This document shows, one piece after another, positions 7,023 to 64,000 of a stretch of 64,000 nt of DNA. Source of the stretch: a virus (lineage: Duplodnaviria; Heunggongvirae; Uroviricota; Caudoviricetes); the IMG/VR virus record IMGVR_UViG_3300022751_000001, positions 14,950 to 78,949 of that record. One strand, written 5' to 3'. Every line of letters begins with the position of its first letter. The first letter of the stretch is position 1. The notes under the pieces were generated by a model. The model did not search any database. It was not told where the DNA came from and saw only the letters and a program-made list of their open reading frames with translations. The position numbers and the translations under genes were made by a program.

Positions 7023-10892
<3,870 letters not shown>

Positions 10893-25758: not shown

Positions 25759-26907
25759 CTAGTTTACTTTGACCACCATTGAAAAACGGGGGCCGAGGTT
25801 TGTTGGGTTGCAGACAGCCATCTCGTTAATGACATCGACTGCGTACACCTTTCCTGTGTATTTCTTTTTGATAATGTCCTCTACCTTTATTCTAGCGAAC
25901 TTTGGACGATTAACCACCAATTGCGTTGAGTAGCTTGTTGTAGTTATAGTTGTTGGGTAGCCAATCTTAAAGAAAAGGTCTGCGAGCTGTTCTGCTTGTT
26001 CAACATTGCTGACTGTGAAGTCGAGCGGGGGACCTTTTGAGGGAATACCATTGTCGAAGTCCCACTCGGGTTTCTTGATGCGGAGTATCTCCTCGATGAA
26101 CGCATACACCGCGTCGGGTGAGGTTGAGCGCATAATCACATTTGGTATTGTTCGCTGAGATATACGCTTACCGATGAACCGTCTGAGTGAACGTGCCGCA
26201 CCTGCACCACTACGAAGAATTACCAGTCGTTCGAGGTGACCATTTCTTACAGCACTTGAAGTTCGATATGCGATTCGGTTTCGATCAAGCAAATCCATAA
26301 GACGCGTCGGGTCATCTTTCTCTCGTACCCTGAACATAGTGTAGGTAGAACGGCTGGTGTCGTCACTTTTAATTGTGCCCCTTAGCACCGCGTACGCGAG
26401 AAGTCTGAAGTATTCTGACTCGCTCATATCCACTGAACCATTCTTGATGAGACCCGCTTGGTGACGCTTATCTTTCATCGTGAACTGCAGAGGGCTTTTG
26501 ACAATCGCTTGCACATTCTTCTTGATGTCTTTGAGCTTGATGGTGTCGATTTGCTCGACCGCTATTCGGTTGCCAGTAAGAACGCTCTTGCGAAACAGCG
26601 TCTTTCTAATCGGTATGGTGCTATCTTCGGTGAGCGAGAAGTGACTAATAATACCACCCTGTCGCTTGAAGATATGCACATGTTCATAAATGTATCCGTC
26701 ATAATCGTACTCTGTAATGTTGAGTACTGGCGAGAATATACCGTGACCCGCGAAGTTGGTCGTTAAAACCTCGTCACCTACATTTAATTCGGTGACGTTT
26801 TTCCAACCGTTGACGGTTAACAGGTTATTTGAAGGGGTGAGCATACTACCACCTAATATACGCGCCAACAGGCTTTGGTTTAAACGCGTTGTAAGCCATG
26901 TTAGCAA
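25759..26907 (-). CDS. Hint-domain (intein-like / BIL-like) protein, possibly with a homing-endonuclease region
   Basis: SMLTPSNNLLTVNGWKNVTELNVGDEVLT matches intein N-terminal block A but with Met in place of Cys1; C-terminal ...KVYAVDVINEMAVCN resembles intein block G with a terminal Asn; 62-nt out-of-frame overlap with terL. Confidence 0.5.
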   Translation of the reverse strand: MLTWLTTRLNQSLLARILGGSMLTPSNNLLTVNGWKNVTELNVGDEVLTTNFAGHGIFSPVLNITEYDYDGYIYEHVHIFKRQGGIISHFSLTEDSTIPIRKTLFRKSVLTGNRIAVEQIDTIKLKDIKKNVQAIVKSPLQFTMKDKRHQAGLIKNGSVDMSESEYFRLLAYAVLRGTIKSDDTSRSTYTMFRVREKDDPTRLMDLLDRNRIAYRTSSAVRNGHLERLVILRSGAGAARSLRRFIGKRISQRTIPNVIMRSTSPDAVYAFIEEILRIKKPEWDFDNGIPSKGPPLDFTVSNVEQAEQLADLFFKIGYPTTITTTSYSTQLVVNRPKFARIKVEDIIKKKYTGKVYAVDVINEMAVCNPTNLGPRFSMVVKVN

Positions 26908-28252
26908 TCATCATCGCGTCAGCCCAGTCAGGTGACCGACCGATTTTCTTGCGAAGTACGCTTTTCTTGACCACTCGAGTTTTACCTGTGTCGAGGTCGT
27001 AGGTGTGGGCAATAAGTTCTTTCTTAATTTCTGATACGTTGAAGTCTTTTGCACCCTCAAGCAATTTCATACGGCCAGAGTCTAGGTCGAGCATAAGGTT
27101 ATAGAAGCCGTCTGAGCGGGTTTGTTGGGTCGCAATGTATACATTTACCTTCCAGCCCTTAGAACGCAAGGCATCGCGTGCTGAAGCCCCCACACCGTTA
27201 CCCTCAATCGTGATGTACTTAGCAACTGCAGGAGTGAACCCATTCTTGAGTGCGAAGTCGATAAGTTTCTCTGCGATAGCGTGACCGATTGCTTGGTCGC
27301 TGCCCTTTGGTGATTTGATTTCAATAGCTTTGACCGCGACACCATTTTCAACGAGTACAGCGATGGTTGCGTCCTTACCGCTGTCTGAAAGGTCGACACC
27401 GATTGCTTTGTTGAACTTGTCGTCTACTGGCTCGTCTAAATCAGCTTCGAATGTCGTAGCTTTGTCGAGTAGCTTCATCGGGAACAACGAGTCATCGTCA
27501 TCAAGGTAATTCCAGTCACCGTCAAGCAAACGCTTGCGTTCTTGTGGTGGTAGCTTCTTCAAGTTTTCGATGTAGTTCGGGTCGATGAACGGGTTAGATG
27601 TTACGGTTGCACGAATATACACGTCGTAAGCTGGCACCTTTGTACCGTCTACCCACACTTCACCGTTCTCCCACTTTTGAACTGGTCCCATGCCACGCTT
27701 TTCATAAGGGTCGTAGAACTCTTGTCGCAACCAGTTAGTTGAAGGGTTACACGCGAGCAGTGTTGTACCGACTAGACCAAACTCGCGATTCATCCATCGT
27801 CCTACACGTGAAGAAAGCACGTCAACCGCGCGCTTATCTGTTTCACCTGCTTCGTCAACGAGTGCAATAGTCAATTCAAGTGAACCGAGACTTTCGAAGT
27901 CAGGGTCTGATGGCTTCGCAGTTAGATCAAGAAACTGAACTCGCGAACCGTTGCGGTATTCGAGAAAGTTTTCACGACCGTTAATAACGTAGTCGTCTTG
28001 GGTGATACCGAGTGCGGGGTGTACTTTTGAGAGCAATGTAGAGAGTGTTGTTTGTCGCAAGCTCATCAACTCTTTTCGAGCGAGACCAATACGTATACCA
28101 GCGTACTTTCTAGACATTAGCGCAACAATAAGACATATAAAGAATGACTTACCACCACCCGCACCACCACCATAAAGAATACGGGTACTTTGCGGGTTTA
28201 AGAACTCGTTATAAGCGAGCAACTGCGCGTCTGAAAATACGACATCTGCCAT
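26846..28252 (-). CDS. terL: terminase large subunit
   Basis: Walker A GGGAGGGKS, LLACNPSTNW, Walker B-like LVDEAGE, C-terminal nuclease region; 468 aa, apparently complete. Confidence 0.85.
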   Translation of the reverse strand: MADVVFSDAQLLAYNEFLNPQSTRILYGGGAGGGKSFFICLIVALMSRKYAGIRIGLARKELMSLRQTTLSTLLSKVHPALGITQDDYVINGRENFLEYRNGSRVQFLDLTAKPSDPDFESLGSLELTIALVDEAGETDKRAVDVLSSRVGRWMNREFGLVGTTLLACNPSTNWLRQEFYDPYEKRGMGPVQKWENGEVWVDGTKVPAYDVYIRATVTSNPFIDPNYIENLKKLPPQERKRLLDGDWNYLDDDDSLFPMKLLDKATTFEADLDEPVDDKFNKAIGVDLSDSGKDATIAVLVENGVAVKAIEIKSPKGSDQAIGHAIAEKLIDFALKNGFTPAVAKYITIEGNGVGASARDALRSKGWKVNVYIATQQTRSDGFYNLMLDLDSGRMKLLEGAKDFNVSEIKKELIAHTYDLDTGKTRVVKKSVLRKKIGRSPDWADAMMIANMAYNAFKPKPVGAYIRW

Positions 28253-34968: not shown

Positions 34969-35135
34969 TACCAACAGAAGCAGAAATCAACAAACTGCAA
35001 GAGCAGTCAGAAAAAGCAGACGTAAAAAAGCAAGCGTCACAAGCAAAGCAAAACAAAGATTTTGTGAATAACGGTCAGGGTGTTATCCCTGAAGCTGTTT
35101 GGAAAGAGCTACCTGGGAAGGTGGAATCTGAATAA
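34969..35135 (+). CDS. hypothetical small protein
   Basis: 55 aa; RBS agagagg; TAATG overlap with the amidase gene. Confidence 0.4.
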
Positions 35136-36301
35136 TGGCAGACGTTAACCGAAAAAAAGTAGATTATCTTGTCCTTCACCACGCGGTGACTCCTCTCTGG
35201 ACTGAAAAGTCAAAAGCATGGCTTGCACAATGGTTTAGCGACAACGGGTACGCTCGCGCTTACGGTTCAAATGCTGGTAACTGGTCTGGTCTTATCAACC
35301 CTTACACTGGCGCACGTTCATACTCACAAGCCCACTATGCGGGGCAACGAGTTGATGGTAGCACTCCTGACGCTACTGATGCTGAACGAGCCGCTGGTTA
35401 CCGTCTAGTACCTCTCGTTAGCGACCCATTCGGTCAAATCACTTGGCACGCTGGTAACTGGGACATCAACACTCGTTCAATCGGTATCGAAAACCTTGGT
35501 GACTACCGAAACTACACTCTCCGTGATGGTGACAACAAAGTCATCGCTGCTTTCTGGCGACCACAAGACGTTGCTCTTGGTGGCGCAACCGCAGTCGTAG
35601 GTCACCACGAAGTATCACAACTTGGTACTGCTTGTCCTGCACGTATCATGGAACAACGTGACGCAATCGTTAACTACATTAACAACCCACCTCAACCACC
35701 TGCACCTGCTGACCCAACATGGCAAGCAATGGACGCACCACGTCGTATGCGAGCTAAAGCTGGTGGTACTACACTCGTTGAAGTTAAGACTGGTAACGGT
35801 GTAAAAGCCTACCCAGCTGGTACTGAGTTCGATCTCAACCAAAAGTCAAACTGGAACGGCAAGACTTACCTGCGTACACCTTACTCATCTACTAACAATG
35901 TTGGTAACGGGTTTGATGAAAATACACTAGAAGCTCTACCTACTGTAGAAGTGAAAGAAGAAAGCAAGACTGAAGAAGTCGCATTCCAAATCACTAAGTC
36001 TACAGACGCGACACTACCTGTCGGTAAAGAAAAGGTTATCCGAGCTGGTGTTAAGGGTGTTCGAACAATCGTCTGGACGGTAACCTACACAAACGGTGTT
36101 GAAACCGCACGAACAGTCAAGTCTGACGCTGTGACAACTCCTGCTGTTGACGAGCTAATCGCAGTCGGTTCATACGTTGAACCACCAACCACCCCACCAG
36201 TGATTCCAGTCCCTGAAGACGGTGAAAGTGCTACGAGCTGGCTATCTAAGGTCATTAAGTTGATCGTAGACTTGCTCTCAAAATTCACTTTCAAGAAGTA
36301 A
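35135..36301 (+). CDS. N-acetylmuramoyl-L-alanine amidase (Amidase_2/PGRP-type endolysin) with C-terminal extension
   Basis: YLVLHHAVT...GQITWHAGNWDINTRSIGIEN...VVGHHEVSQLGTACPA matches the Amidase_2 zinc-amidase pattern; ~200-aa C-terminal region could be a cell-wall-binding domain. Confidence 0.75.
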   Translation: MADVNRKKVDYLVLHHAVTPLWTEKSKAWLAQWFSDNGYARAYGSNAGNWSGLINPYTGARSYSQAHYAGQRVDGSTPDATDAERAAGYRLVPLVSDPFGQITWHAGNWDINTRSIGIENLGDYRNYTLRDGDNKVIAAFWRPQDVALGGATAVVGHHEVSQLGTACPARIMEQRDAIVNYINNPPQPPAPADPTWQAMDAPRRMRAKAGGTTLVEVKTGNGVKAYPAGTEFDLNQKSNWNGKTYLRTPYSSTNNVGNGFDENTLEALPTVEVKEESKTEEVAFQITKSTDATLPVGKEKVIRAGVKGVRTIVWTVTYTNGVETARTVKSDAVTTPAVDELIAVGSYVEPPTTPPVIPVPEDGESATSWLSKVIKLIVDLLSKFTFKK

Positions 36302-39425: not shown

Positions 39426-39653
39426 CTAAATACCGATTGCGTTTTTGAGTGCTGGTCGGTCGAAACCTCGCACAATTGTGTCACCGATGACAGTAACTGG
39501 GACACCGCTACCTACGTTCAGAGCTTCAAACTCCTTCATTGCAGCTTCGTCTTCGTCAATCATCTTTGATTCGTATGCAACCCCGAGAGAGTCGAGCCAT
39601 TGCTTTTCTGTCTTGCAGAATGCGCACCACGCGGTGCTGTAAATTGTAACCAT
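39426..39653 (-). CDS. glutaredoxin-like protein (NrdH/Grx)
   Basis: MVTIYSTAWCAFCKTEKQWL... (CxxC active site); C-terminal GVPVTVIGDTIVRGFD. Confidence 0.7.
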   Translation of the reverse strand: MVTIYSTAWCAFCKTEKQWLDSLGVAYESKMIDEDEAAMKEFEALNVGSGVPVTVIGDTIVRGFDRPALKNAIGI

Positions 39654-39654
39654 A

Positions 39655-39843
39655 TTATTCAGTTCCTAGAATGATGTTGTCGTTAATTGCGATTTCACCA
39701 AGCATACGGACTTCGGCTTCAGTTACCAGACGTTCACCATCTGCTCCCCAAAGTTCAGGGTCCATAATGCGAGCGTATACGCTTGGGTTCACTTCAGGGT
39801 TGTGAGCCCCAAAGTCTAGACTACCTAGATGTTCGCCAGCCAT
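39655..39843 (-). CDS. hypothetical protein
   Basis: internal ATG (MAGEHLG...) of ORF 39655-39861; TGATG overlap with the upstream small gene. Confidence 0.35.
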   Translation of the reverse strand: MAGEHLGSLDFGAHNPEVNPSVYARIMDPELWGADGERLVTEAEVRMLGEIAINDNIILGTE

Positions 39844-40016
39844 CACTGACAACCTTCGCACATAAGAGCGTCTGAAGGGTCGATAGGGGCTGCAACACGA
39901 CCTTGCGCTTTTGCTGTGCTATCAGCTGTTGCTTGTGCATTTGCCATCGCTGCGTCAATAGCTGCGAGCTTTTCTTCTAGTGTCATTTCGTCGTTGATGA
40001 GTGTAGTTGCGTTCAT
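39844..40016 (-). CDS. hypothetical small protein
   Basis: 57 aa (MNATTLINDEMTLEEKLAAIDAAMANAQATADSTAKAQGRVAAPIDPSDALMCEGCQ); first ORF downstream of the tRNA array on the same strand. Confidence 0.3.
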
Positions 40017-40146
40017 TTGTACCCCGTTTTAAGTGTAAATAATAAGCACCTCATTTGAGGGCTTGGTTGATTCTCTACTTAGTATAACGGGATTTATCAC
40101 GACACATTCCCAGCGGTTATTCAACGTAAAATACAATATAATTTCT

Positions 40147-40221
40147 TGGCACTCGCGCTAGGACTCGAACCTAGATTGCTGGAGCCAAAATCCAGTGTCC
40201 TACCAGTTAGACGACATGAGT
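40147..40221 (-). tRNA. tRNA-Gln(UUG)
   Basis: cloverleaf on the reverse complement; anticodon stem CTGGA/TCCAG, loop TTTTGGC; GTTCGAGTC T-loop; CCA encoded. Confidence 0.7.
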
Positions 40222-40226
40222 ATACT

Positions 40227-40302
40227 TGGGGTAAAAGATGAGAATTGAACTCACATTATCGGCACCACAAGCCGACGTTCTAACCATTGAACTACTTTCA
40301 CC
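40227..40302 (-). tRNA. tRNA-His(GUG)
   Basis: extra 5' G(-1), anticodon loop TTGTGGT, discriminator C, CCA encoded. Confidence 0.7.
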
Positions 40303-40307
40303 ACGCT

Positions 40308-40371
40308 TGGCTCCGCACACGGGTTGCAACGCCTTGGTGCAAACGTTATACACTTCAGACACGTGTACGGA
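40308..40371 (-). pseudogene. 64-nt CCA-terminated tRNA-like element (degenerate tRNA?)
   Basis: 7-bp acceptor-like helix TCCGTAC/GTGCGGA, discriminator G, CCA; too short for a cloverleaf; contains GTTGCAAC...CCCGTG as in the elements at 40907 and 43165. Confidence 0.3.
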
Positions 40372-40374
40372 GTT

Positions 40375-40458
40375 TGGCGGAAGATTGGATAATCGAAAAC
40401 CATGCTTTCACACTCATCGCTTAGCGGGCGAGACCTGATCCTATCAGGTTAATCTTCC
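40375..40458 (-). tRNA. tRNA-Ser(GCU)-like, atypical D-arm (possible pseudogene)
   Basis: perfect acceptor GGAAGAT/ATCTTCC, discriminator G, CCA, T-loop TTCGATT, anticodon loop CCGCTAA with C33, long variable arm; D region is a 7-bp hairpin with a 3-nt loop. Confidence 0.4.
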
Positions 40459-40461
40459 ATG

Positions 40462-40547
<86 letters not shown>

Positions 40548-40553
40548 TAATTG

Positions 40554-40641
40554 TGGTCGGTCTAGCTAGATTTGAACTAGCACGAGGTTTTAATCTCCGC
40601 AGGGTTTAAGCCTGCTATGTCTACCGTTTCATCATAGACCG
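40554..40641 (-). tRNA. tRNA-Leu(UAA)
   Basis: type-II; anticodon stem GCAGG/CCTGC, loop CTTAAAC; CCA. Confidence 0.75.
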
Positions 40642-40646
40642 TAATT

Positions 40647-40732
40647 TGGTACCGAAGGTGGGACTCGAACCCACAACGCTTTTCAGCACTGGTTCCTAAG
40701 ACCAGCGTGTCTACCAATTCCACCACTTCGGC
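40647..40732 (-). tRNA. tRNA-Leu(UAG)
   Basis: type-II; 5' GCCGAAGTGGTGGAATTGGTAGACAC; anticodon loop CTTAGGA; CCA. Confidence 0.75.
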
Positions 40733-40737
40733 ATATT

Positions 40738-40822
40738 TGGTGTGCTTACTCAGACTTGAACTGAGATGAGATTAACTCGGTAGCTTTTGAAACTACTGCG
40801 TATACCGTTCCGCCATAAGCAC
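40738..40822 (-). tRNA. tRNA-Leu(CAA)
   Basis: type-II; anticodon loop TTCAAAA; T-arm CTCAG-TTCAAGT-CTGAG; CCA. Confidence 0.7.
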
Positions 40823-40827
40823 ATATT

Positions 40828-40901
40828 TGGAGAAACGTATCAGATTCGCACTGATGTAAACGGGTTTGCAATCCGCTGCGTAGCTGCTCCGCCAACGCTT
40901 C
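40828..40901 (-). tRNA. tRNA-Cys(GCA)
   Basis: anticodon arm GCGGATTGCAAACCCGT (cf. E. coli Cys GCGGATTGCAAATCCGT); discriminator U; CCA. Confidence 0.7.
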
Positions 40902-40906
40902 ATATT

Positions 40907-41022
40907 TGGCACCCCCGCAAACCTTTAGGGTGAGCTAACAAATGCTTTTTATAACTAGTATGTTGCACTTGCTTGCCTGCGTATCTACTCAGGTAATTAA
41001 GCTGAGCACTACAAACGGGGGT
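40907..41022 (-). ncRNA. 116-nt CCA-terminated tRNA-like element (function unknown)
   Basis: perfect 7-bp terminal helix ACCCCCG/CGGGGGT, discriminator G, CCA, enclosing ~100 nt of AT-rich sequence without a canonical T-loop; 3' region ...CCTAAAGG...CGGGGGTGCCA resembles the element at 43165. Confidence 0.3.
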
Positions 41023-41027
41023 ATATT

Positions 41028-41098
41028 TGGTGAAGTAGGACGGAATCGAACCATCGCCTTTTGATTTACAGTCAATCGGGTGCCCTGCACGCTACAAC
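41028..41098 (-). pseudogene. tRNA-Tyr(GUA)-like, probably degenerate
   Basis: anticodon loop CTGTAAA and T-arm GATGG-TTCGATT-CCGTC are good, but the acceptor has two T-T mismatches, the D-arm is tiny and the variable arm is short for Tyr. Confidence 0.3.
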
Positions 41099-41103
41099 AT
41101 ATT

Positions 41104-41180
41104 TGGTGGTTTCGGTCTGAATTGAACAGACGACCCCCTGTTCTTCAAACAGGTGCTCTAACCAACTGAGCTACAAAACC
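41104..41180 (-). tRNA. tRNA-Phe(GAA)
   Basis: GCTCAGTTGGTTAGAGC D-arm; anticodon loop TTGAAGA; CCA. Confidence 0.75.
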
Positions 41181-41193
41181 AAAAGTTACTTGT

Positions 41194-41274
41194 TCGGGGA
41201 GCCAGGAGTTGAACCTGGGCATCGGGTCTATATTACTCTGCAGCCCGCAGCACTAACGTTATGCTTACTCCCCG
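41194..41274 (-). pseudogene. atypical tRNA-like gene: no encoded CCA, 15-17-nt anticodon loop
   Basis: perfect acceptor CGGGGAG/CTCCCCG and T-arm CCAGG-TTCAACT-CCTGG, but the anticodon stem CGGG/CCCG encloses CTGCAGAGTAATATAGA; 3' end is ...A-ACA instead of CCA. Confidence 0.3.
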
Positions 41275-41277
41275 TTA

Positions 41278-41352
41278 TGGTCAGTCCAGTAGGGTTCGAA
41301 CCTACGGTCTCATGCTCCCAAAGCACGCGTGATACCACTTCACTATAGACTG
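41278..41352 (-). tRNA. tRNA-Pro(UGG)
   Basis: anticodon loop TTTGGGA; T-arm GTAGG-TTCGAAC-CCTAC; CCA. Confidence 0.7.
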
Positions 41353-41355
41353 ATT

Positions 41356-41430
41356 TGGCTCTAGATATTGGAATCGAACCAATCGCCTTCTCCTTAACAG
41401 GGAGCTGCCCTACCGATGGGCCGATCTAGA
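41356..41430 (-). tRNA. tRNA-Asn(GUU)
   Basis: perfect acceptor TCTAGAT/ATCTAGA; anticodon loop CTGTTAA; CCA. Confidence 0.7.
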
Positions 41431-41437
41431 ATATATT

Positions 41438-41512
41438 TGGCGCGACCAGCGAGAATTGAACTCGCGACTATACCGTGACAGGGTACTGTGATAACCACTT
41501 CACCATGATCGC
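41438..41512 (-). tRNA. tRNA-Asp(GUC)
   Basis: anticodon loop CTGTCAC; T-loop TCAATTC; CCA. Confidence 0.7.
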
Positions 41513-41517
41513 ATATT

Positions 41518-41600
41518 TGGCACACGTACACAGATTCGAACTGCTTAGCTTTCGCACTGGTTTTGGAGACCAGTTCCCATCGCCACTAGGGAGTACATGT
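41518..41600 (-). tRNA. tRNA-Trp(CCA) with 11-nt variable region
   Basis: acceptor ACATGTA/TACGTGT (one G-U); anticodon stem CTGGT/ACCAG, loop CTCCAAA; extra GCGAAAGC mini-hairpin in the variable region; 83 nt. Confidence 0.5.
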
Positions 41601-41985
41601 ATATTGGGTGCTGGGTTTTGTTGATTTGTGCCCAGCGTCCCGACTAGCGATATGCAATTGCATAAAGCTATCAAATCGGTCAGACCTTTCATCGGTAGTC
41701 TGAATGAGCCTTATACTTGAGACTCGCTTATCTTTCTCAAGCAGGGTGCGCTAAACGCTCCAAGGGTCGGCAGACCCGTCGTACAACCATTCATTTCGGG
41801 GGAGGGGAGTGTATGCCCCAGCTTAATCTATCGCTCTTTGCAATAGACCCCCTGATGTAACTCGACCGCTGCGCTACCCATCACGGTTTACAGTACCTAC
41901 CAGCTTTGGGAGCTGGGGTGTTAGGGTCACTTACAGCCCTATCTGCTGACTACCGTGCCAAAGCCTCGTCCGTCGGTTAATTTGT

Positions 41986-42019
41986 TAAAAAAAGACACCT
42001 ACTTGTGGGTAGATGTCTC
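41986..42019 (-). terminator. rho-independent terminator (minus strand) inside the tRNA region
   Basis: minus-strand GAGACATCTACC-cacaa-GTAGGTGTC then TTTTTTT. Confidence 0.45.
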
Positions 42020-42140
42020 TCGTTGTTTGTTTTCAAAATTCTTCTTATGAAGAGAACGACAAGACACCTACACTAAATTGATCCGGGCAATTTGACCAGA
42101 GCTGTGATAGTAGTGAGTGACTATATAATGTCTTCATAAT
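42020..42140 (-). ncRNA. candidate small RNA (~130 nt) bounded by promoter and terminator
   Basis: minus-strand promoter ttgtat-18-tgg-tataat (plus 42144-42173) upstream and the 41986-42019 terminator downstream; longest ORF inside is 21 codons. Confidence 0.3.
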
Positions 42141-42143
42141 TTC

Positions 42144-42173
42144 ATTATACCATAATAATAAATGGCAATACAA
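42144..42173 (-). promoter_or_regulatory. putative promoter with extended -10 (minus strand)
   Basis: reverse complement ttgtattgccatttattattatggtataat. Confidence 0.35.
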
Positions 42174-42188
42174 TCTTTTTTATAAATT

Positions 42189-42263
42189 TGGTCACCCATG
42201 GGAGAGTTGAACTCCCGTTGCATGATTGAAAATCATGTGTCCTAACCGTTAGACGAATGGGCG
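42189..42263 (-). tRNA. tRNA-Glu(UUC)
   Basis: anticodon stem CATGA/TCATG, loop TTTTCAA; T-arm GGGAG-TTCAACT-CTCCC; CCA. Confidence 0.7.
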
Positions 42264-42268
42264 ATATG

Positions 42269-42345
42269 TGGTGAAACCGATAGGGATCGAACCTATGACA
42301 CCCTGATTAAGAGTCAGGTGCTCTAACCAGCTGAGCTACGGTTCC
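42269..42345 (-). tRNA. tRNA-Lys(CUU)
   Basis: GCTCAGCTGGTTAGAGC D-arm; anticodon loop CTCTTAA; CCA. Confidence 0.7.
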
Positions 42346-42442
42346 ATATCTTGAAAAGGTGCTACGAGAAGTTTCGGCTCATACGTCCATGCAATTCCTG
42401 CCTGGTTTGACCTCGTAATCATACTTGCTACCAATATGTATT

Positions 42443-42518
42443 TGGTGGAGTTGCAGAGAATCGAACTCTGGTGAAGACGTTGCAAACGTCCCATAATAAA
42501 CCGTTATATGACAACCCC
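42443..42518 (-). tRNA. tRNA-Ala(UGC)
   Basis: acceptor GGGGTTG/CAACTCC; anticodon loop TTTGCAA; T-arm CAGAG-TTCGATT-CTCTG; CCA. Confidence 0.65.
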
Positions 42519-42526
42519 GAATTGTT

Positions 42527-42602
42527 TGGTAGTTCCCGCTGGACTTGAACCAGCACCAGCTTCGTTAGAACCGAAGTGCCCTATCCATTAGACCAGAGAA
42601 CC
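42527..42602 (-). tRNA. tRNA-Arg(UCU)
   Basis: anticodon stem CTTCG/CGAAG, loop GTTCTAA; T-loop TTCAAGT; CCA. Confidence 0.65.
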
Positions 42603-42830
42603 TTATATTTCTGCTTTGAGGTACTTATCGAGCAGATCATTGATTTGAGTAATGTGAACCATACCAGCTTGTTTCACAGCTATTTCACCAAAGTGTCTGC
42701 GCAGTACTACGAAACCTTGTTCGAGTGCTTGCGTTTCTTCTTCAATGATGTCGCGAGTTAGGTCATGCACTAGACTTTCAGCTTGTCGCTTGACTAAGTT
42801 TGGGTCTGGGTCTTTGCGGTATGCTTCCAT
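42603..42830 (-). CDS. hypothetical protein nested inside the tRNA array
   Basis: 75 aa from the internal ATG (MEAYRKDPDPNLVKRQAESLVHDL...); the longer ORF start would overlap tRNA-Gly; stop abuts the 5' end of tRNA-Arg. Confidence 0.4.
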   Translation of the reverse strand: MEAYRKDPDPNLVKRQAESLVHDLTRDIIEEETQALEQGFVVLRRHFGEIAVKQAGMVHITQINDLLDKYLKAEI

Positions 42831-42846
42831 ACTCTTATTATACGTA

Positions 42847-42921
42847 TGGTGCGGGTACACAGAATCGAACTGTGATCCCCTGATTGGAAGTCAGGTATAT
42901 TAGCCGTTATACTATACCCGC
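42847..42921 (-). tRNA. tRNA-Gly(UCC)
   Basis: perfect acceptor GCGGGTA/TACCCGC; anticodon loop CTTCCAA; T-arm CACAG-TTCGATT-CTGTG; CCA. Confidence 0.7.
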
Positions 42922-42927
42922 AAATGT

Positions 42928-43005
42928 TGGAGCCCCTCACGGAGTCGAACCGTTCCTCGTACCTACCACGGTACGCGTGCTAACCAACGTTACACTAACT
43001 GGGGC
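42928..43005 (-). pseudogene. tRNA-Thr(GGU)-like with irregular anticodon loop and acceptor (possible pseudogene)
   Basis: anticodon region CGTAC-CGTGGTAG-GTACG allows only a 6- or 8-nt loop around GGT; T-loop TTCGACT present; acceptor pairing imperfect; CCA position ambiguous. Confidence 0.3.
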
Positions 43006-43008
43006 GTA

Positions 43009-43082
43009 TGGGGCCGCCACTCGGTACTGCCCCGAGGTCGATAGTTTACAAAACTACTACTCTACTTTTGAGCTATGGCGGC
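43009..43082 (-). tRNA. tRNA-Thr(UGU) with non-canonical T-loop
   Basis: perfect acceptor GCCGCCA/TGGCGGC, discriminator C, CCA; anticodon loop TTTGTAA; T-arm TCGGG-GCAGTAC-CCGAG lacks the T54-psi55-C56 consensus. Confidence 0.5.
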
Positions 43083-43085
43083 ACT

Positions 43086-43161
43086 TGGTAGTCCCAGAAG
43101 GAATTGCACCCTCGACACCTTGTTCCGAAGACAAGTGCTCTATCTGCTGAGCTATAGGACT
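43086..43161 (-). tRNA. tRNA-Arg(UCG)
   Basis: acceptor AGTCCTA/TGGGACT; D-arm GCTCAGCAGATAGAGC; anticodon loop CTTCGGA; CCA. Confidence 0.6.
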
Positions 43162-43164
43162 TTA

Positions 43165-43268
43165 TGGTGCACGGGGGCAGCTTTAGGCTACCTCTATTCT
43201 AATAACGCTTCAGTGCACCTCTACGCTTTCGATTCTCGAGCCACGTTGCAACGATGTGCTCTCCGTAC
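43165..43268 (-). ncRNA. 104-nt CCA-terminated tRNA-like element (function unknown)
   Basis: terminal helix GTACGGA/CCCGTGC, discriminator A, CCA; no T-loop; interior contains CGTTGCAACG and ...GCCTAAAGCTGCCCCCGTGCACCA, echoing the elements at 40308 and 40907. Confidence 0.3.
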
Positions 43269-43273
43269 AAATT

Positions 43274-43358
43274 TGGTTGCGGGGACGGGATTCGAACCCG
43301 TGTATCTTGCGACAAAGGGATATGAGCCCTCCGAGAATGACCGCTTCTCAACCCCGCT
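43274..43358 (-). tRNA. type-II (long variable arm) tRNA with CAU anticodon and A1-A72 mismatch
   Basis: acceptor AGCGGGG/CCCCGCA with A1 opposite A72; 3-bp D-stem GAG/CTC; anticodon stem GAGGG/CCCTT, loop CTCATAT (anticodon CAU); variable arm TGTC-GCAA-GATA hairpin; T-arm ACGGG-TTCGAAT-CCCGT; CCA. Confidence 0.55.
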
Positions 43359-43363
43359 ATATA

Positions 43364-43439
43364 TGGTCGTCTCTGTAGGACTCGAACCTACAACCTTCTG
43401 TGTGTAAAACAGATGCTCTAGCCATTGAGCTAAGAGACG
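43364..43439 (-). tRNA. tRNA-Val(UAC)
   Basis: acceptor CGTCTCT/AGAGACG; D-arm GCTCAATGGCTAGAGC; anticodon loop TTTACAC; CCA. Confidence 0.7.
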
Positions 43440-43451
43440 ATAATTTGTTAA

Positions 43452-43525
43452 TGGTCGGTGTAGGTGGTTCTGCCCCACCGTATGCAGAATATAAGTCTGC
43501 TGTTCTACTATTGAACTATACACCA
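43452..43525 (-). tRNA. tRNA with UAU anticodon (Ile-UAU?) and non-canonical T-loop
   Basis: acceptor TGGTGTA/TACACCG; D-arm GTTCAATAGTAGAAC; anticodon stem GCAGA/TCTGC, loop CTTATAT; T-arm GGTGG-GGCAGAA-CCACC lacks the TTC consensus; CCA. Confidence 0.45.
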
Positions 43526-43532
43526 GAATACT

Positions 43533-43609
43533 TGGTTGGACGAGTAGGATTTGAACCTACGATCTCCTGAATATCAGTCAAGTGCTTTAACCAGCTAAGC
43601 TACCGTCCA
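43533..43609 (-). tRNA. tRNA-Ile(GAU)
   Basis: acceptor TGGACGG/TCGTCCA; anticodon stem CTTGA/TCAGG, loop CTGATAT; T-arm GTAGG-TTCAAAT-CCTAC; CCA. Confidence 0.6.
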
Positions 43610-43616
43610 TTATTTG

Positions 43617-43691
43617 TGGTGGGCTCGGTTGGAATCGAACCAACGTGGTACAGATTAAAAGTCTGCTGCTCAACCACTGAGCCACGAACCC
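43617..43691 (-). tRNA. tRNA-Lys(UUU)
   Basis: acceptor GGGTTCG/CGAGCCC; D-arm GCTCAGTGGTTGAGC; anticodon loop CTTTTAA; T-arm GTTGG-TTCGATT-CCAAC; CCA. Confidence 0.7.
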
Positions 43692-43746
43692 AAGATATAA
43701 AAAAAGAGCTATTTAGCTCCAACTATGACTTGAGTTGTAAGCTATA

Positions 43747-43917
43747 TTATTCTTTCTTCTTTTCACCCCGTTTTGTAAATGTACCCATAATGAACCCTGT
43801 CACTGCCACAATAGCAATAATGCCGCCAGCTATTGCTGTCGTCTCTTTGGTGCGCTTGACGTATTTCACTAGGTCAGCCGCTTCCTTTTGAATCTTCTTG
43901 GTGTTCATAGTATTCAT
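43747..43917 (-). CDS. hypothetical small membrane protein (first gene of the tRNA operon?)
   Basis: 56 aa (MNTMNTKKIQKEAADLVKYVKRTKETTAIAGGIIAIVAVTGFIMGTF...), one TM helix; below the ORF-track cutoff. Confidence 0.3.
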   Translation of the reverse strand: MNTMNTKKIQKEAADLVKYVKRTKETTAIAGGIIAIVAVTGFIMGTFTKRGEKKKE

Positions 43918-44076
43918 TATACACATATTAGTATATAATGCAAAATGCGCGGTGGCAGGGCAACAGATAGTCAGTGCACTATATCTGTTGGACCGTAAGA
44001 CCGACCATAATTTTACTGATTACAAAGAGATGCGCCAAATCAGTCATGTAGACCTCTTAGCGGGGGTCTATTTTTA

Positions 44077-44304
44077 GTGTATAGTAGTCGGTATAAAACT
44101 ATGACAAAATACTCAATATATGAAGTTGGCGAAAAAGCTAACAAAAATCGCGACTCATTAGACTTCGAAAAATGGTTAGAACGCACCCTCAAATATATAA
44201 CTGAAAAGATCGACCCAGCGTTCAACCGAGAAAAATTTGCAGAATGGTTAGAAGAAGACGACGAAAAACCATTTATTTCTGGTAAAAATAGGTATTATTG
44301 GTAG
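44077..44304 (+). CDS. hypothetical protein
   Basis: 75 aa; first gene of a plus-strand block. Confidence 0.45.
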   Translation: MYSSRYKTMTKYSIYEVGEKANKNRDSLDFEKWLERTLKYITEKIDPAFNREKFAEWLEEDDEKPFISGKNRYYW

Positions 44305-44336
44305 CAACGCCCGTAAATTCCTGCTATAATAAGGAT

Positions 44337-44768
44337 ATGAAAGATATTCAGAACGAAGCAGAAACAGGTGTACAAACCATCACAAACCTGCAGATGACAC
44401 TCGCGCAAATCGAGAACGAACTGCAAACCAACCCTAAGTTCATTGAGTTCCTACGCGTCCAGGACGAGCTTAACGCAAAGCGTTCAGAGTTCGACTCGAC
44501 AATGAAAGACTTGATGATTGAGCGGTTCAAAGACACAGGTGAAAAGAAGCTCGAAGTTGGTAACGCAACATTCGCGCTAACACCACGTGAAGAACTGATA
44601 ATCACAGACGAAGACAAAGTTGACGATGCCTTCGTTACTAAAGTAACCGTAAAAAAGCTAGATAAAGAGGCAGTGAAAGCTGTTCAAGTTCTTGAAGGTC
44701 GCCTCGTTGACGGAGTCGGTGTTCGACAATCGTTCGCATACAAACTAACCATTAAGGATAACGAATAA
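44337..44768 (+). CDS. Gp157-like protein (siphovirus Gp157 family)
   Basis: internal ATG preceded by aaggat; coiled-coil N-terminus; sits immediately upstream of a RecT-family gene as Gp157 proteins typically do. Confidence 0.4.
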   Translation: MKDIQNEAETGVQTITNLQMTLAQIENELQTNPKFIEFLRVQDELNAKRSEFDSTMKDLMIERFKDTGEKKLEVGNATFALTPREELIITDEDKVDDAFVTKVTVKKLDKEAVKAVQVLEGRLVDGVGVRQSFAYKLTIKDNE

Positions 44769-49876: not shown

Positions 49877-49929
49877 CCGATTGATGTTCATACTTAGGTA
49901 TGAAAGAGATAAAACATAAAAGGATCAAC

Positions 49930-50862
49930 ATGAAAAAACCTATTCTACGTATGATGGTTGGTCTCCCTGGCTCAGGTAAAAGCACCGCAGCTAGTGAGCT
50001 GACAGACAACAGTACCCCAGATGAAACTTGGGTGCAGGTTGAGAAAGACCTTATTCGCAAAGACAGCAAGCTCTTTGAGGGCGGTGAGTACAACCACAAG
50101 CGCGGTGACGAAGCTATCGTTATTCGAGAGCGCAACCGTCTTATTCGTGACGCACTACGAGCTGGTAACAGCGTAGTCGTTTCAGACACAAACCTCGACC
50201 CTAAGCACCGTGGGCAACTGCGAATGTTGGCTACCGAAACCGACGTAGATTTCGAAGTCGATGACAGCTTCTTAGATGTACCAGTTGACGAATGTATTAA
50301 GCGCGACGAAGACCGTGAAAAGAGTATCGGTAAAGACGTTATCTTAGATATGTATTACAAATACGTTCACCCAGGCTTTCACCAACGTCGTTCTGACTGG
50401 AAAGACAAGCTACCACGTGCGTTCTTGTGCGACATTGACGGTACACTGGCTCACAACCTCACTGGGCGTAGCTGGTACGACCTCGAGCAAGTTAAGAATG
50501 ACACACCGAACTACGCACTAACACACATCTTTGACGCGATTGACCTGTTTCGTGATGACTTTTCTCGCAAGCACACGAAGTACACACACATCATTCTCTT
50601 GAGCGGTCGCAAAGAGGGGGCTCGAGCGGCTACAGAAGCGTGGTTAGACCAATGGTCAATACCGTATGATGAACTCATTATGCGCGCAGACAACGATGAC
50701 CGACAAGACTCTATCACAAAGAAAGAGCTGTACGAGCAACACATTAAAGACAAGTACAATGTTCTAGCTGTATTTGACGACCGACCACAGGTAGTTGATA
50801 TGTGGCGACGTGAGCTTGGCTTGATGGTATTTCAGGCTGCAGATCACGACTTGAAGTTTTAA
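49930..50862 (+). CDS. pnk: polynucleotide 5'-kinase/3'-phosphatase (T4 Pnk-like)
   Basis: P-loop MVGLPGSGKST; VSDTNLDPKHR (T4 ISDTNLNPERR); HAD phosphatase motifs FLCDIDGTLAH, ILLSGRKEG, VFDDRPQVVDMWRRELG (T4 IDDRTQVVEMWRRIG); start may be 49900. Confidence 0.8.
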   Translation: MKKPILRMMVGLPGSGKSTAASELTDNSTPDETWVQVEKDLIRKDSKLFEGGEYNHKRGDEAIVIRERNRLIRDALRAGNSVVVSDTNLDPKHRGQLRMLATETDVDFEVDDSFLDVPVDECIKRDEDREKSIGKDVILDMYYKYVHPGFHQRRSDWKDKLPRAFLCDIDGTLAHNLTGRSWYDLEQVKNDTPNYALTHIFDAIDLFRDDFSRKHTKYTHIILLSGRKEGARAATEAWLDQWSIPYDELIMRADNDDRQDSITKKELYEQHIKDKYNVLAVFDDRPQVVDMWRRELGLMVFQAADHDLKF

Positions 50863-60156: not shown

Positions 60157-60484
60157 GACGACAGATAGTGACTGCGTCTAGGGTTACGTCAGCCGCGTAG
60201 AACTTTGCGGTTTTCATTGTGCGAGTAGCGTTGTCGAAGAATGTCACGTTGAAGTACGGTACGTTGACCGCGTTAAGCAATTGCTGTGCTCGTTCAAGTG
60301 TGGTTACTGTGATTGTCACGTTTACGTTAGGGAAGATACCGATGAAGTTAGCGACAATGTCACCACTCATATTTCGGTATGCGTCTGACCAGAGCTTAGC
60401 GTATTGAATCTGCCATGCTTTGATCTCTGCGGTTCCTACCACTACACCGTTAATGGTGATTGGTTGGTCTGGTATGTTAGACAT
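60104..60484 (-). CDS. hypothetical tail-associated protein (immediately downstream of tape measure)
   Basis: 126 aa; position after the TMP suggests a distal-tail/assembly role, but it is small. Confidence 0.35.
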   Translation of the reverse strand: MSNIPDQPITINGVVVGTAEIKAWQIQYAKLWSDAYRNMSGDIVANFIGIFPNVNVTITVTTLERAQQLLNAVNVPYFNVTFFDNATRTMKTAKFYAADVTLDAVTICRLEEFQIQLVPVSKAAWI

Positions 60485-63400: not shown

Positions 63401-64000
63401 TGTCAGAGACACGTTGGATAACACCGAATGCTTGCGCACCAGTAAGACCTACCGATACGAGCTTTTGTTCGTAAGCGATAAGGCTTGCTGTGTCGTACGG
63501 TGTTGAGTTCGCGTATGTGTATAGGTCGAAGATCGCTTTACCAGCGGCTTCAGTACTTTGCAACAGGCTTTCAAGACCGAGTTGAGCAGACTCAATCAGC
63601 GAGATGGTTTTAAGAATAGGGATAGTCGCGAATGCTGCAACAGCTGCCGCAAGACCAAGACCCATACGAGAAATTTCACCAGTAGCGGTGCGAATGTTGT
63701 TACCGAATTGTAGAACGCTCTTGCTAGGGCCACTGAAGTTCTTACCAGCAACGTCGTTGAAGACTTTACCGAACCCTTGCATAACGTCACGCAGGTGAGA
63801 GGTTTGGTTCGCTGCTTTTTCAGCTTCGTCTTCTACTTGCTTGATACCCGCTGCGATTGTAGGAGCTAGACCAGCGAGACCACCGAATTGTGAACCAAGT
63901 TGGCCACCCAAAGAAGAAGCGGTATCTTGTATCGCTGTTCGTTGTCGTTCTAGCCAGTTGGTAGTGATTGAGCCCGCAGTAGCTGCGTCTGCACCCGTAC
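60477..64000 (-). CDS. tail tape measure protein, 5' end beyond the window
   Basis: ORF open to the window edge (no in-frame stop between 63911 and 64000); tandem ~11-aa (FxxNLGP...) and ~36-aa (NWI...ITPIxxFFxxLWNGI) repeats and hydrophobic helical segments typical of TMPs. Confidence 0.75.
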   Translation of the reverse strand, partial: TGADAATAGSITTNWLERQRTAIQDTASSLGGQLGSQFGGLAGLAPTIAAGIKQVEDEAEKAANQTSHLRDVMQGFGKVFNDVAGKNFSGPSKSVLQFGNNIRTATGEISRMGLGLAAAVAAFATIPILKTISLIESAQLGLESLLQSTEAAGKAIFDLYTYANSTPYDTASLIAYEQKLVSVGLTGAQAFGVIQRVSDIGGAFGASSDQLDRFYYVLSQIFGAGKATGTDFLQIQNSLPGFISAIGEAMGKSAGEVRSAFGDGSVTSEVIVKALNNLTKEGGIAFQGAIKQSSTFAGILNNLQDNLKRVGLAFFGVTVTTDGMTVAVDGLYSRLKNLLSSLLSFVENPLVVATFERIGQAVGALLSLLSQYPQVVAILSGLFLAFATDLISRIPFIGNLIGEIGYGTGLLVGLFAALVASSSAMQQALVSVLGIAIQFVQQNEGLFRQLLANFAQLLQVLGQGIAPALVIATRLFFGLAQAVLIGLNAIIQTATAIANFLGPSVTQAITLFTIFLAVGLAVTPVILGIAAAVLALGRALVSTAGRIALVVAALVALISLFGVFNSATPSTGPLDALGEIFDGITESTGNAAVGIGDVEGALGGAGDAAKKATKQLAAFDKMNVINSPTGADAAGGGGGGLGDLGITEPVLPDFSKLKDNLKNMLAGLDGLAPKSNWWDFLIIPAGVLAGLYQLTRWFPTQWAAIRAGLAVFGANFVNFFKNLGPLAINALRSFGPNLVKFFTTLGPRILAVFTNLGPQIARVFTTIGPLILRALPTILRAVLTVGANVAKAFGPIGWAIAAVLTAALLLIFNWEAVSKWFTGIFEGIVGFFTNLGAQIGQVFMLALEGAFGPIPQIFASIVVLIVALVATIFNTLAGLPNWIMTNIITPIGGFFANLWGGIQIAFILMWSFITQILGMFGNWVFVNVITPVANFFTGLWNGIVAGVTTGFNAVMTFLSPFFNWIKTKIIDPIAGAFSGLWNGIVNVASGIFSRIVSVMSPIFNWIYNNVVAPIANAFNQLSNAISQVFNNLKNTITNVFSGVLGVIKGVFNGIIDAINGVIKSINKIKVPDNVPGIGGLSPNFPSIPRLARGGVVDQATLAMFGEDGREAVMPLENNTGWIDELASKLNGQSKGSDGPTVINVYLDGNKVGGAISNSINDRTMVTGVNQIYV

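Follow-up and report, generated by a model that had tools for sequence, protein, structure and literature searches.

How does a phage control the tRNA genes that it carries, and what is the role of a long segment without any tRNA in the middle of such an array? To our knowledge, almost nothing is known about the regulation of phage tRNA genes. The question is raised by a 64,000-nucleotide stretch of IMG/VR record IMGVR_UViG_3300022751_000001 (positions 14,950–78,949, here called the window), which is part of the genome of an uncultivated siphophage. Its tRNA genes all lie on the minus strand, between 40147 and 43691, and are interrupted by an island at 41601–42188, flanked by tRNA-Glu (42189–42263) and tRNA-Trp (41518–41600). 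An earlier note, made from the sequence alone, had described this island as non-coding and structured, with a small RNA bounded by its own promoter and terminator. In our analysis, the island most likely represents the regulatory and non-coding head of the array's second transcription unit, read on the minus strand. Its promoter–terminator unit (42173–41987) would be a ribosome-mediated leader-peptide attenuator of phage tRNA genes and not a small RNA, a reading to which we assign a probability of about 0.7. The earlier note was right that the element is real, structured, conserved and on the tRNA strand; its filing of the promoter–terminator unit as a non-coding small RNA is not supported, in view of a conserved in-frame open reading frame (ORF) with a frame-specific composition that preserves a defined set of amino acids.

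All features of the island are on the minus strand, the strand of the tRNA genes, and they form three parts: the promoter–terminator unit, an RNA that we call D1 (41980–41857) and a further structured part (41852–41601). As expected from the earlier note, no tRNA, tmRNA or Rfam family was detected in the island by ARAGORN at default and relaxed settings or by Rfam cmscan, including a scan of the island alone at E <= 10, which returned noise only, with scores far below the gathering thresholds; this includes the models for group I introns, RNase P, 6S and Y RNA. In seven relatives, cmscan at gathering thresholds likewise gave no family for the island, and no tmRNA was found in the scanned window part 39500–44500. 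Compared with shuffled sequences, folding is favoured at z = -3.2 for 41601–41990 on the minus strand, -2.5 on the plus strand and -3.9 for the promoter–terminator unit. Comparison with related phages placed the island in three contigs, in the same Glu/Trp slot and 80–86% identical, found through an IMG/VR scan based on the phage RecT protein; an exact 25-mer scan of IMG/VR and a RecT scan of JGI metagenomes recovered only those three contigs again. A RecT homologue search with contig look-ups added eight more distant phages (RecT 57–87% identical), and independent IMG/VR contigs were added through a D1 pattern scan.

A candidate attenuator before the second tRNA sub-array

The promoter of the unit, which the earlier note had recognized, is conserved in relatives and lies at 42144–42173 on the minus strand, with a -35 hexamer TTGTAT (42173–42168), an 18-nt spacer and an extended -10 element TGG-TATAAT (42152–42144). 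The -10 sequence TGGTATAAT is unchanged in L001, L002 and L004, and the A of an ATG (42137) is the seventh base past it, so that a leaderless mRNA is predicted, with transcription probably starting at or next to the A of the AUG. The same layout, in which a -10 element is followed by 6–7 nt and a start codon, is found in 11 of 12 orthologous leaders, the remaining one (L019) having an AAGGA Shine–Dalgarno sequence instead. The ATG opens an ORF of 30 codons plus TAA (42045–42137, minus strand; MKTLYSHSLLSQLWSNCPDQFSVGVLSFSS), which sits exactly between the promoter and the terminator. The earlier statement that the island holds no ORF over ~25 codons is thereby corrected, all the more as this frame reaches 42 codons from an upstream TTG and a 47-codon TTG ORF exists on the plus strand; the predicted transcript is also longer, ~151 nt instead of ~130 nt. 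The terminator, GAGAGACAUCUAC-CCACAA-GUAGGUGUCUUUU, begins 23 nt past the stop codon and has a 13-bp stem (-15.7 kcal/mol), a CCACAA loop at 42008–42003 and a run of seven T, as the earlier note had read it; it is conserved in relatives, and an intrinsic terminator stands behind the leader in 12 of 12 orthologues. The -35 hexamer agrees with the consensus at 3 of 6 positions only and the terminator stem extends into the T tract; a consensus scanner listed neither element. After the U tract, a short sequence, (C)UUUAACAA (41981–41990 in the window), is conserved in all relatives before D1 or the next element; processing or pausing may take place there.

A consensus scan of the minus strand revealed no promoter-like site between this terminator and tRNA-Trp, and the downstream tRNAs therefore depend on read-through. 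These tRNAs form a sub-array at 40147–41600 (minus strand) that consists of tRNA-Trp, Asp, Asn, Pro, an odd tRNA-like sequence (41273–41195), Phe, Tyr, Cys, Leu-CAA, Leu-TAG, Leu-TAA, Ser-TGA, Ser-GCT, His and Gln. Leader residues 4–22 (LYSHSLLSQLWSNCPDQFS) comprise only, and all of, the 11 amino acids served by this sub-array (W, D, N, P, F, Y, C, L, S, H and Q). Cognate leader codons are present for 14 of 14 downstream tRNAs, isoacceptors included, with TTA, CTA and TTG matching the three Leu tRNAs and TCA and AGT the two Ser tRNAs. A run of 19 residues drawn only from this set was seen in 0 of 200,000 random peptides, and the probability that a 29-mer holds all 11 amino acids is 0.0025; the enrichment is limited to the leader's own reading frame. 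The unit is 92–93% identical across L001, L002 and L004 and more conserved than the rest of the island. Most changes within the ORF in close relatives are synonymous (TCA>TCT, CTA>CTC, CCG>CCA, TTC>TTT); the others, L>V and F>Y, are conservative, or keep to the amino acids that the downstream tRNAs serve. In the L012 leader the replacements are L>S, S>N and T>N.

About 17 phage contigs, related or independent, have the same unit ahead of tRNA sub-arrays, and the more divergent relatives keep it with very different peptides, MRKSYSNSLLWNHFDQPNDLSFGAASFSA, MKTLQQYSNCNLWSFDPDTITVGF and MKDLMNQSQLSSQHPQWLCFNDIFESGS among others. Taken together, cognate leader codons were counted for 247 of 274 downstream tRNAs versus 158±7.5 expected with random codons, and of the 63 (phage, amino acid) pairs for which a tRNA lies downstream, 62 have the amino acid in the leader (Fisher P = 8e-8). 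In a swap control, where each leader was paired with the other sub-array, only 2–32% of the residues belonged to its set. The composition follows individual tRNA genes: Cys is found in the leader if and only if tRNA-Cys lies downstream (nine of nine lineages), L014 has a tRNA-Glu in the downstream group and two Glu in its leader, and in L005, whose downstream tRNAs are W, P, F, N and Q only, the leader MKVLFQQPNFNFWSFNPVLIRVGV is dominated by those residues. The L072 leader, MTRWNNIPKCVRHFDMKGSIL, stands before a mixed group of 14 tRNAs and has one cognate codon for each; among these codons are AGA and CGA for two Arg tRNAs, AAA and AAG for two Lys tRNAs and ATA for Ile-TAT. The smallest example, a mini-leader in L030 (MINSNTYYEEESNL), stands ahead of tRNA-Glu(TTC), Tyr and Glu(CTC), with a run YYEEE that resembles hisL.

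These data bear directly on the view closest to the earlier note, namely that the unit encodes a free-standing non-coding small RNA of ~150 nt acting in trans, with a constitutive terminator that merely splits the array. A strong promoter and terminator around a well-folded RNA (z = -3.9) would suit such a gene, and so would the very high nucleotide conservation, as a function at the RNA level would give. Yet every relative has the ORF uninterrupted and in frame, however much the sequence has changed, its start codon lies at the predicted +1 or behind a Shine–Dalgarno sequence, the substitutions are synonymous or within the tRNA set, and the frame-specific match to the downstream tRNAs would be left without explanation. 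Moreover, were termination complete, the downstream tRNAs would have no promoter that we could find. We therefore regard a small RNA of this kind as an improbable alternative to the leader-peptide attenuator.

The first sub-array has a unit of its own. As the earlier note had implied, transcription of the array is divided into two or more units: ahead of the first tRNA, at 43944–43698 (minus strand), lie another promoter, a short ORF and a terminator. This sister unit has the promoter TTTGCA, 17 nt, TATAAT, a leaderless 53-codon ORF from an ATG at 43908 and a terminator at 43720–43705 plus a T run, followed by tRNA-Lys (Lys-TTT) at 43691. The two sub-arrays encode disjoint amino-acid sets, 20 in sum, with K, I, V, M, R, T, G, A and E in the upstream group. 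The sister ORF is rich in precisely these residues (own-set residues 73% versus 48% background), has cognate codons for nine of ten tRNAs, and its orthologues are unlike in sequence and the same in composition (for example MSEITRTMITKRTKVGAEIIGVGTRSERTFTSRGDTAA and MERVITGTKRATGTERVEIKRAAKRTFTTQP). A recurrent RTFT motif was seen in these orthologues (ACNUUUACA). As a separate observation, the codons of group 1 are almost only purine-first (K, I, V, M, T, G, A and E, plus R), those of group 2 are pyrimidine-first plus Asp and Asn, and the split is repeated in most relatives. In L015 (~8040–8110) and L019 (~8230–8300), both on the minus strand, a small conserved hairpin RNA (GGAACGUGAGA...UCUCACGUUCCACC) with its own TTGAC-type promoter sits just upstream of the group-1 leader promoter.

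The RNA of the unit before tRNA-Trp can be divided into four regions of the kind known from classical attenuators. Region 1 (42108–42122, codons 6–10, AGUCACUCACUACUA) pairs with region 2 in minimum-free-energy folds of the untranslated RNA. Region 2 (42054–42072, codons 22–28, UGUAGGUGUCUUGUCGUUC) supplies the 5' strand of a putative antiterminator. Region 3 (42009–42025, CAACGAGAGACAUCUAC) is the shared strand, able to pair either with region 2 (antiterminator) or with region 4 (terminator), and region 4 (41987–42002) is the terminator 3' arm GUAGGUGUC plus the U7 tract (41993–41987); all four are on the minus strand. Since the end of the ORF pairs with the terminator 5' arm, region 2 is a direct repeat of the terminator 3' arm (GUAGGUGUCUU), and this repeat co-varies between phages. 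The region 2:3 duplex is predicted at -19.3 kcal/mol versus -8.4±2.4 in shuffles (z = -4.5). In 12 of 12 orthologues the terminator 5' arm and the bases just upstream of it can pair with the last codons or with the stop codon, with duplex z-scores of -1.5 to -5.4 (mean -3.5); in the clade of the window, region 2 is part of the ORF and precedes the stop codon. It is this pairing, together with the match between codons and tRNAs, that makes the terminator better read as the conditional terminator of an attenuator. The minimum-free-energy fold of the free RNA combines the 1:2 pairing with the terminator. When a ribosome footprint is imposed, a ribosome at mid-ORF codons leaves the antiterminator, and one at codon 18 or beyond, or at the stop codon, leaves the terminator; this footprint-dependent switch is obtained in six of 12 phages (the window, L001, L002, L005, L014 and L017).

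Could the ORF instead encode a functional micro-protein, such as a membrane or anti-defence peptide, in front of a leaky and unregulated terminator? Small phage proteins are common, and in the group-1 counterparts of the window, L014 and L016, Lys residues flank a hydrophobic core that resembles a transmembrane segment. Between lineages, however, it is the composition and not the sequence that is conserved, and the composition follows tRNA gain and loss; the replacements of L by S, S by N and T by N are not physico-chemically conservative, yet they stay in the tRNA set. In all 12 phages, moreover, the antiterminator incorporates the last part of the ORF. For these reasons, a micro-protein is considered unlikely, and the leader-peptide attenuator remains the preferred interpretation of the unit.

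If the unit does work as an attenuator, the following sequence of events can be proposed. Transcription from the extended -10 promoter would start at or next to the AUG, and ribosomes would load directly on the leaderless 30-codon ORF, whose central 19 codons include at least one codon for every tRNA encoded downstream. A ribosome running smoothly to the stop codon would cover region 2, the 3:4 terminator would form and transcription would end. Were the leader left untranslated, region 1 would sequester region 2, and the terminator would form in this case as well. When any of the sensed aminoacyl-tRNAs is scarce, on the other hand, the ribosome would stall in the central codons and leave region 2 free to pair with region 3 before region 4 has been made. 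The terminator would thus be pre-empted, and RNA polymerase would read into D1, the clade-specific structured RNA and the 14–15 tRNA genes. The outcome would be an expression of phage tRNAs that is both demand-driven and self-limiting. What sequence comparison shows is the anatomy of the unit and its conservation, the match of leader codons to tRNAs, the alternative pairings and the covariation in the structured RNAs; the transcription start, the translation of the ORF, the direction of the switch and the processing of the RNA are our inference.

Several observations weigh against this interpretation, and some of them would suit a switch of the opposite sign, in which read-through needs translation of the leader, or a switch set by another signal, in which a phage or host factor bound to D1 or to the leader decides on termination and the codons serve some other purpose. 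In L012, L015, L018 and L019 no minimum-free-energy switch is obtained; the terminator remains the most stable fold in every simulated state, so that any switch there would have to be kinetic. In the lineage of the window, D1 is the first gene after the candidate attenuator and begins ~7–15 nt past the U tract, and the proposed direction of regulation is taken only by analogy from trp- and his-type leaders. A switch of either of these kinds nevertheless appears unlikely: the stop codon lies at least 23 nt ahead of the terminator stem, so that a terminating ribosome cannot melt it; region 2, inside or at the end of the ORF, is free only with a stalled or absent ribosome; and D1 is found in many arrays that have no leader, so that it is not an obligatory part of the switch. 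Other difficulties concern the attenuator as such. The match between leaders and tRNAs is imperfect, since the leaders of L013 and L016 have W, Y, S or P where no such tRNA was detected, and the L017 leader has Tyr although its tRNA-Tyr lies upstream. Many of the matches are not evolutionarily independent, because the leaders are partly homologous. For the group-1 leaders, no antiterminator could be shown by the simple duplex test, and those of the window, L014 and L016 resemble small membrane proteins. Finally, no cultured relative was found in INPHARED, and should the host be a Firmicute in which translation is not coupled to transcription, attenuation by ribosomes would be out of the ordinary.

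The D1 RNA

D1 (41857–41980, minus strand) is a predicted 124-nt RNA with an irregular long helix and two variable capping hairpins. The helix is made up of P1, with the conserved strands CGGACGAGGCU against GAUGGGUAGCG-N-GCGG, and then P2, and the core of the family can be written as P1 / CGGACRAGGCU / P2 ... P2' / GGGUAGCGNGYGG / P1', with P1 and P2 covarying. The segment GGGTAGCGCAGCGGTCGAG (41877–41859), in which the earlier note had seen the 5' half of a tRNA, is the conserved 3' strand of this helix and not a tRNA fragment. Among ten relatives, 93.9% of the D1 cells are paired and seven of 15 pairs show compensatory change; this level was reached in 0 of 500 shuffles, and controls in which the pairing was slid gave 18–58%.

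The pattern GGACRAGGCT-N52-82-GGTAGCGNGYGG, run on IMG/VR, matched 64 contigs, all of which were also matched by a covariance model, at 24–80 bits. With covariance model R1, D1 of the window scores 90.7 bits, and R1 matches 60 other viral contigs as well. In 58 distinct D1 sequences, 93% of the cells are paired versus 74% in shuffles (30–65% in slid controls), and 137 cells carry double changes versus 38±6 in shuffles. The G-U pairs fix the strand, and D1 is therefore placed on the strand of the tRNAs. About 35 of the 60 D1 loci lie within a tRNA array and on its strand, often with tRNAs abutting on both sides, and many arrays with D1 are without any leader. No family was found for D1 by cmscan against Rfam 15 in 18 other loci in all, including eleven D1 loci scanned at E <= 0.5. 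A scan of GTDB with the pattern gave 55 matches, of which chance would account for ~35; the covariance model accepts only 10, and the eight matches in Saccharibacteria are not among them. T4 rnaC and rnaD were considered as homologues and rejected, with R1 scores of <=7 bits on T4 68000–75000. D1 also has local resemblances to the loop E/helix IV arm of 5S rRNA (in permuted order), to Y RNA stems and, in one subfamily, to an acceptor-like ACCA tail, on which we base no claim. In light of the covariation, the location in tRNA and tmRNA clusters and the absence of any Rfam or T4 match, D1 is, as far as sequence comparison can tell, a small-RNA gene in its own right that belongs to a broad phage family. 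Presumably, the processing by which the adjacent tRNAs mature also releases D1.

D1 has a repeated association with tmRNA-type genes. In L068 it lies in the intervening segment of a permuted two-piece tmRNA (tag DNSYALAA), and in L015, L019 and L056 it is followed by a tmRNA-like tRNA domain of ~80 nt. The window island, by contrast, has neither a tRNA-like domain nor a tag frame, and ARAGORN and the Rfam tmRNA model are both negative there. Such 'mini tmRNAs', which consist of the tRNA-like domain only, were noticed at L015 5953–6030, L019 ~5183–5265, L005 7305–7375 and L056 1193–1275. They read GGGGCUA...UCGACGG, a hairpin and then UUCGGACGAGGGGGCAGUACCCUCUAGCUCCACCA, with G3:U70, A73 and an encoded CCA; they have no tag frame or pseudoknots, lie just before tRNA-Trp and may act as an alanine-accepting decoy or rescue RNA. 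Another conserved RNA, ~290 nt long and without an ORF, was seen on the minus strand of L014 (~4030–4320) and L019 (~5650–5860) behind a TGCTATAAT promoter; it starts ..ACGAUAAG..UUUAAAUGAUGUGUYGGUC, ends UCCCACCCGACRCAUYUUUU and has no Rfam match at gathering thresholds.

The remainder of the island and its surroundings

Between D1 and tRNA-Trp, the island contains two further groups of predicted structures on the minus strand. Domain 2 (41798–41852) is a G5/C5 stem around two hairpins, UCUAUUGC/GCGAUAGA and GGGG/CCCC, with compensatory changes at pairs 148-200, 156-168 and 180-195; it is confined to the close clade of the window, and other sequence takes its place in L012. The 3' modules (41601–41797) comprise a conserved linker, AUGGUUGUACGAC, and six hairpins at 41777–41764, 41761–41745, 41744–41714, 41703–41680, 41679–41640 and 41636–41610. 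These, too, are limited to the close clade, and two of the modules recur in L013. Across four sequences, 12 of their 47 predicted pairs show compensatory change, and they include an invariant block of 38 nt. The hairpins picked out by the earlier note are indeed present: GCTGGG/CCCAGC at 41610–41636, TCAGAC/GTCTGA at 41680–41703, CCAGCT/AGCTGG at 41900–41916 and GGGTC-GGCA-GACCC, read from the sequence, at 41765–41778. The structured RNA stops 9 nt short of tRNA-Trp, and RNase P cleavage of this tRNA would thus define its 3' end. A long-range helix, CGGUAGUC/GACUACCG, suggested by the minimum-free-energy fold of a single sequence, was rejected, as the relatives covary in CACGGU/ACCGUG.

It might be argued that the island is decayed array material, made of tRNA pseudogenes or scars of mobile elements, with incidental hairpins and a ~385-nt part that has no function. 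The slot between the terminator and tRNA-Trp does differ in content between relatives, which have D1 only, D1 with a mini tmRNA-like domain or an endonuclease VII ORF (L013), and Domain 2 is swapped in L012. Decay would not, however, account for the compensatory changes that no more than four sequences reveal at 17 of 105 and 12 of 47 predicted pairs, for an invariant 38-nt block and long single-stranded and loop blocks that are unchanged in relatives, or for the strong covariation of D1 across 58 sequences from unrelated phages. Nor do the Rfam tRNA and tmRNA models match anything in the island; the pseudogene hint in the earlier note finds no support, and the ~385-nt remainder holds a D1-family RNA. 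A decayed array is hardly credible, and the island is better understood as the head of a transcription unit.

Within the array, ARAGORN reports 22 tRNAs; Tyr-GTA, Ser-GCT, Ile-TAT, Thr-TGT and an odd tRNA-like sequence are further genes recognized by Rfam and by ARAGORN at relaxed settings. Several of these genes are unusual. The tRNA-Ile(TAT) (43455–43525) and tRNA-Thr(TGT) (43012–43082), both on the minus strand and missed by default ARAGORN, have the T-loop GGCAGAA or GGCAGTA, not TTCGAAT, and share it with the mini tmRNA-like domains of L015 and L019. The tRNA-Trp(CCA) (41518–41600, minus strand) is 83 nt long with a long variable arm, and its top Rfam match is tRNA-Sec at a sub-threshold 30 bits; in L012, L013 and L016 the same slot holds what looks, by eye, like a non-canonical tRNA-Trp that ARAGORN does not call. 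The tRNA-like sequence at 41195–41273 (minus strand; Rfam tRNA, 30.9 bits) combines well-formed acceptor, D and T arms with a 17-nt 'anticodon loop'. An 85-codon ORF at 42603–42860 (minus strand), without a Pfam match, fills a 245-nt gap between tRNA-Arg(TCT) and tRNA-Gly, a gap shared by L001 and L002. Arrays of relatives end with full-length tmRNA genes (Rfam 49–88 bits), at 1848–2284 in L017, 2307–2667 in L014, 1376–1734 in L018 and 3415–3776 in L016.

Elsewhere in the window are a large terminase (26846–28252), an endolysin with amidase_2 and G5 (35135–36301), a tape-measure protein (60477–63911), Gp157, RecT and YqaJ. BLAST against the 50,697 deposited phages of INPHARED, using the island, two other D1 members and the large terminase, found no relative closer than 40% protein identity. 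The window also encodes a polynucleotide kinase-phosphatase (PNKP; 49900–50862, plus strand). In relatives, an RNA ligase lies beside PNKP as a T4-type tRNA repair pair (L012 9237–11102, L014 12644–14502). The presence of PNKP in the window, and of PNKP with RNA ligase in relatives, suggests that this lineage is exposed to tRNA-cleaving host defences.

Relation to known systems

In the position of its ORF, its codon content, its terminator and its alternative pairing, the unit has the sequence-level features by which leader-peptide attenuators can be recognized, and it would differ from them in its target, tRNA genes, and in the wording of its leader. Like trpL, hisL, pheL and the multivalent ilvL/ilvGMEDA and thrL of enterobacteria and the leaders of Corynebacterium, it has a short ORF right behind the promoter, and as in attenuators of the trp, his and ilv type, the regulatory codons would name the item that is sensed, regions 1:2, 2:3 and 3:4 can pair and a terminator precedes the regulated genes. 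The trp, leu, ilvB and aroF leader peptides of Corynebacterium are noted in PMC3890552. Unlike the classical systems, the genes under control here would be those of tRNAs and structured RNAs, not of biosynthetic enzymes; the leader, instead of repeating one codon, lists about one codon each for up to 14 tRNA species (11 amino acids); and it is leaderless, phage-encoded and, in the clade of the window, has region 2 inside the ORF. Among 8 million papers and preprints searched by topic, none was found that describes leader peptides or attenuators ahead of phage tRNA genes, and a literature search with sequence strings returned primers only. T-box riboswitches also use a cis leader to couple tRNA status to terminator read-through. 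A T-box, though, works without translation, by direct binding of a single uncharged tRNA, and is marked by a conserved stem I and T-box sequence, whereas the sensor proposed here is the translating ribosome, and the island has no T-box match in Rfam.

Small structured RNAs on the tRNA strand, abutting tRNA genes of a phage cluster, are familiar from T4, where rnaC (species 1) and rnaD (species 2) are of this kind. D1 has no similarity to them in sequence or structure and has its own core, CGGACRAGGCU against GGGUAGCGNGYGG. GOLLD and ROOL are structured non-coding RNAs of phages, often beside tRNA genes; unlike the island, which matches neither in Rfam, they are ~600–800 nt long. D1 is best described as an RNA family that covaries strongly and is missing from Rfam; its members come from at least 60 viral contigs, with GC contents of 39–71%.

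Several roles have been proposed, and debated, for phage tRNA sets: compensation of codon usage, replacement of a degraded host pool and evasion of anticodon nucleases. We consider the chances somewhat better than even that 'enumerator' leaders, leaderless mini-ORFs with about one codon per downstream tRNA species, isoacceptors included, control phage tRNA arrays and that D1 constitutes a new and widespread class of phage small RNA that accompanies tRNA and tmRNA genes. If true, phage tRNA arrays would gain their first described cis-regulatory logic, and attenuation would be extended from one amino acid and its biosynthetic operon to a ribosome that polls a dozen tRNAs and controls their genes, opening the terminator when any member of the downstream set is limiting. 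The leader unit would also offer a sequence signature for delimiting tRNA operons in metagenomic phages and predict which tRNAs a phage treats as one supply unit. Such a demand-driven supply of tRNA, if true, would plausibly counter the depletion or cleavage of host tRNAs in phages that encode PNKP, in some cases alongside RNA ligase, as well as tmRNA genes.

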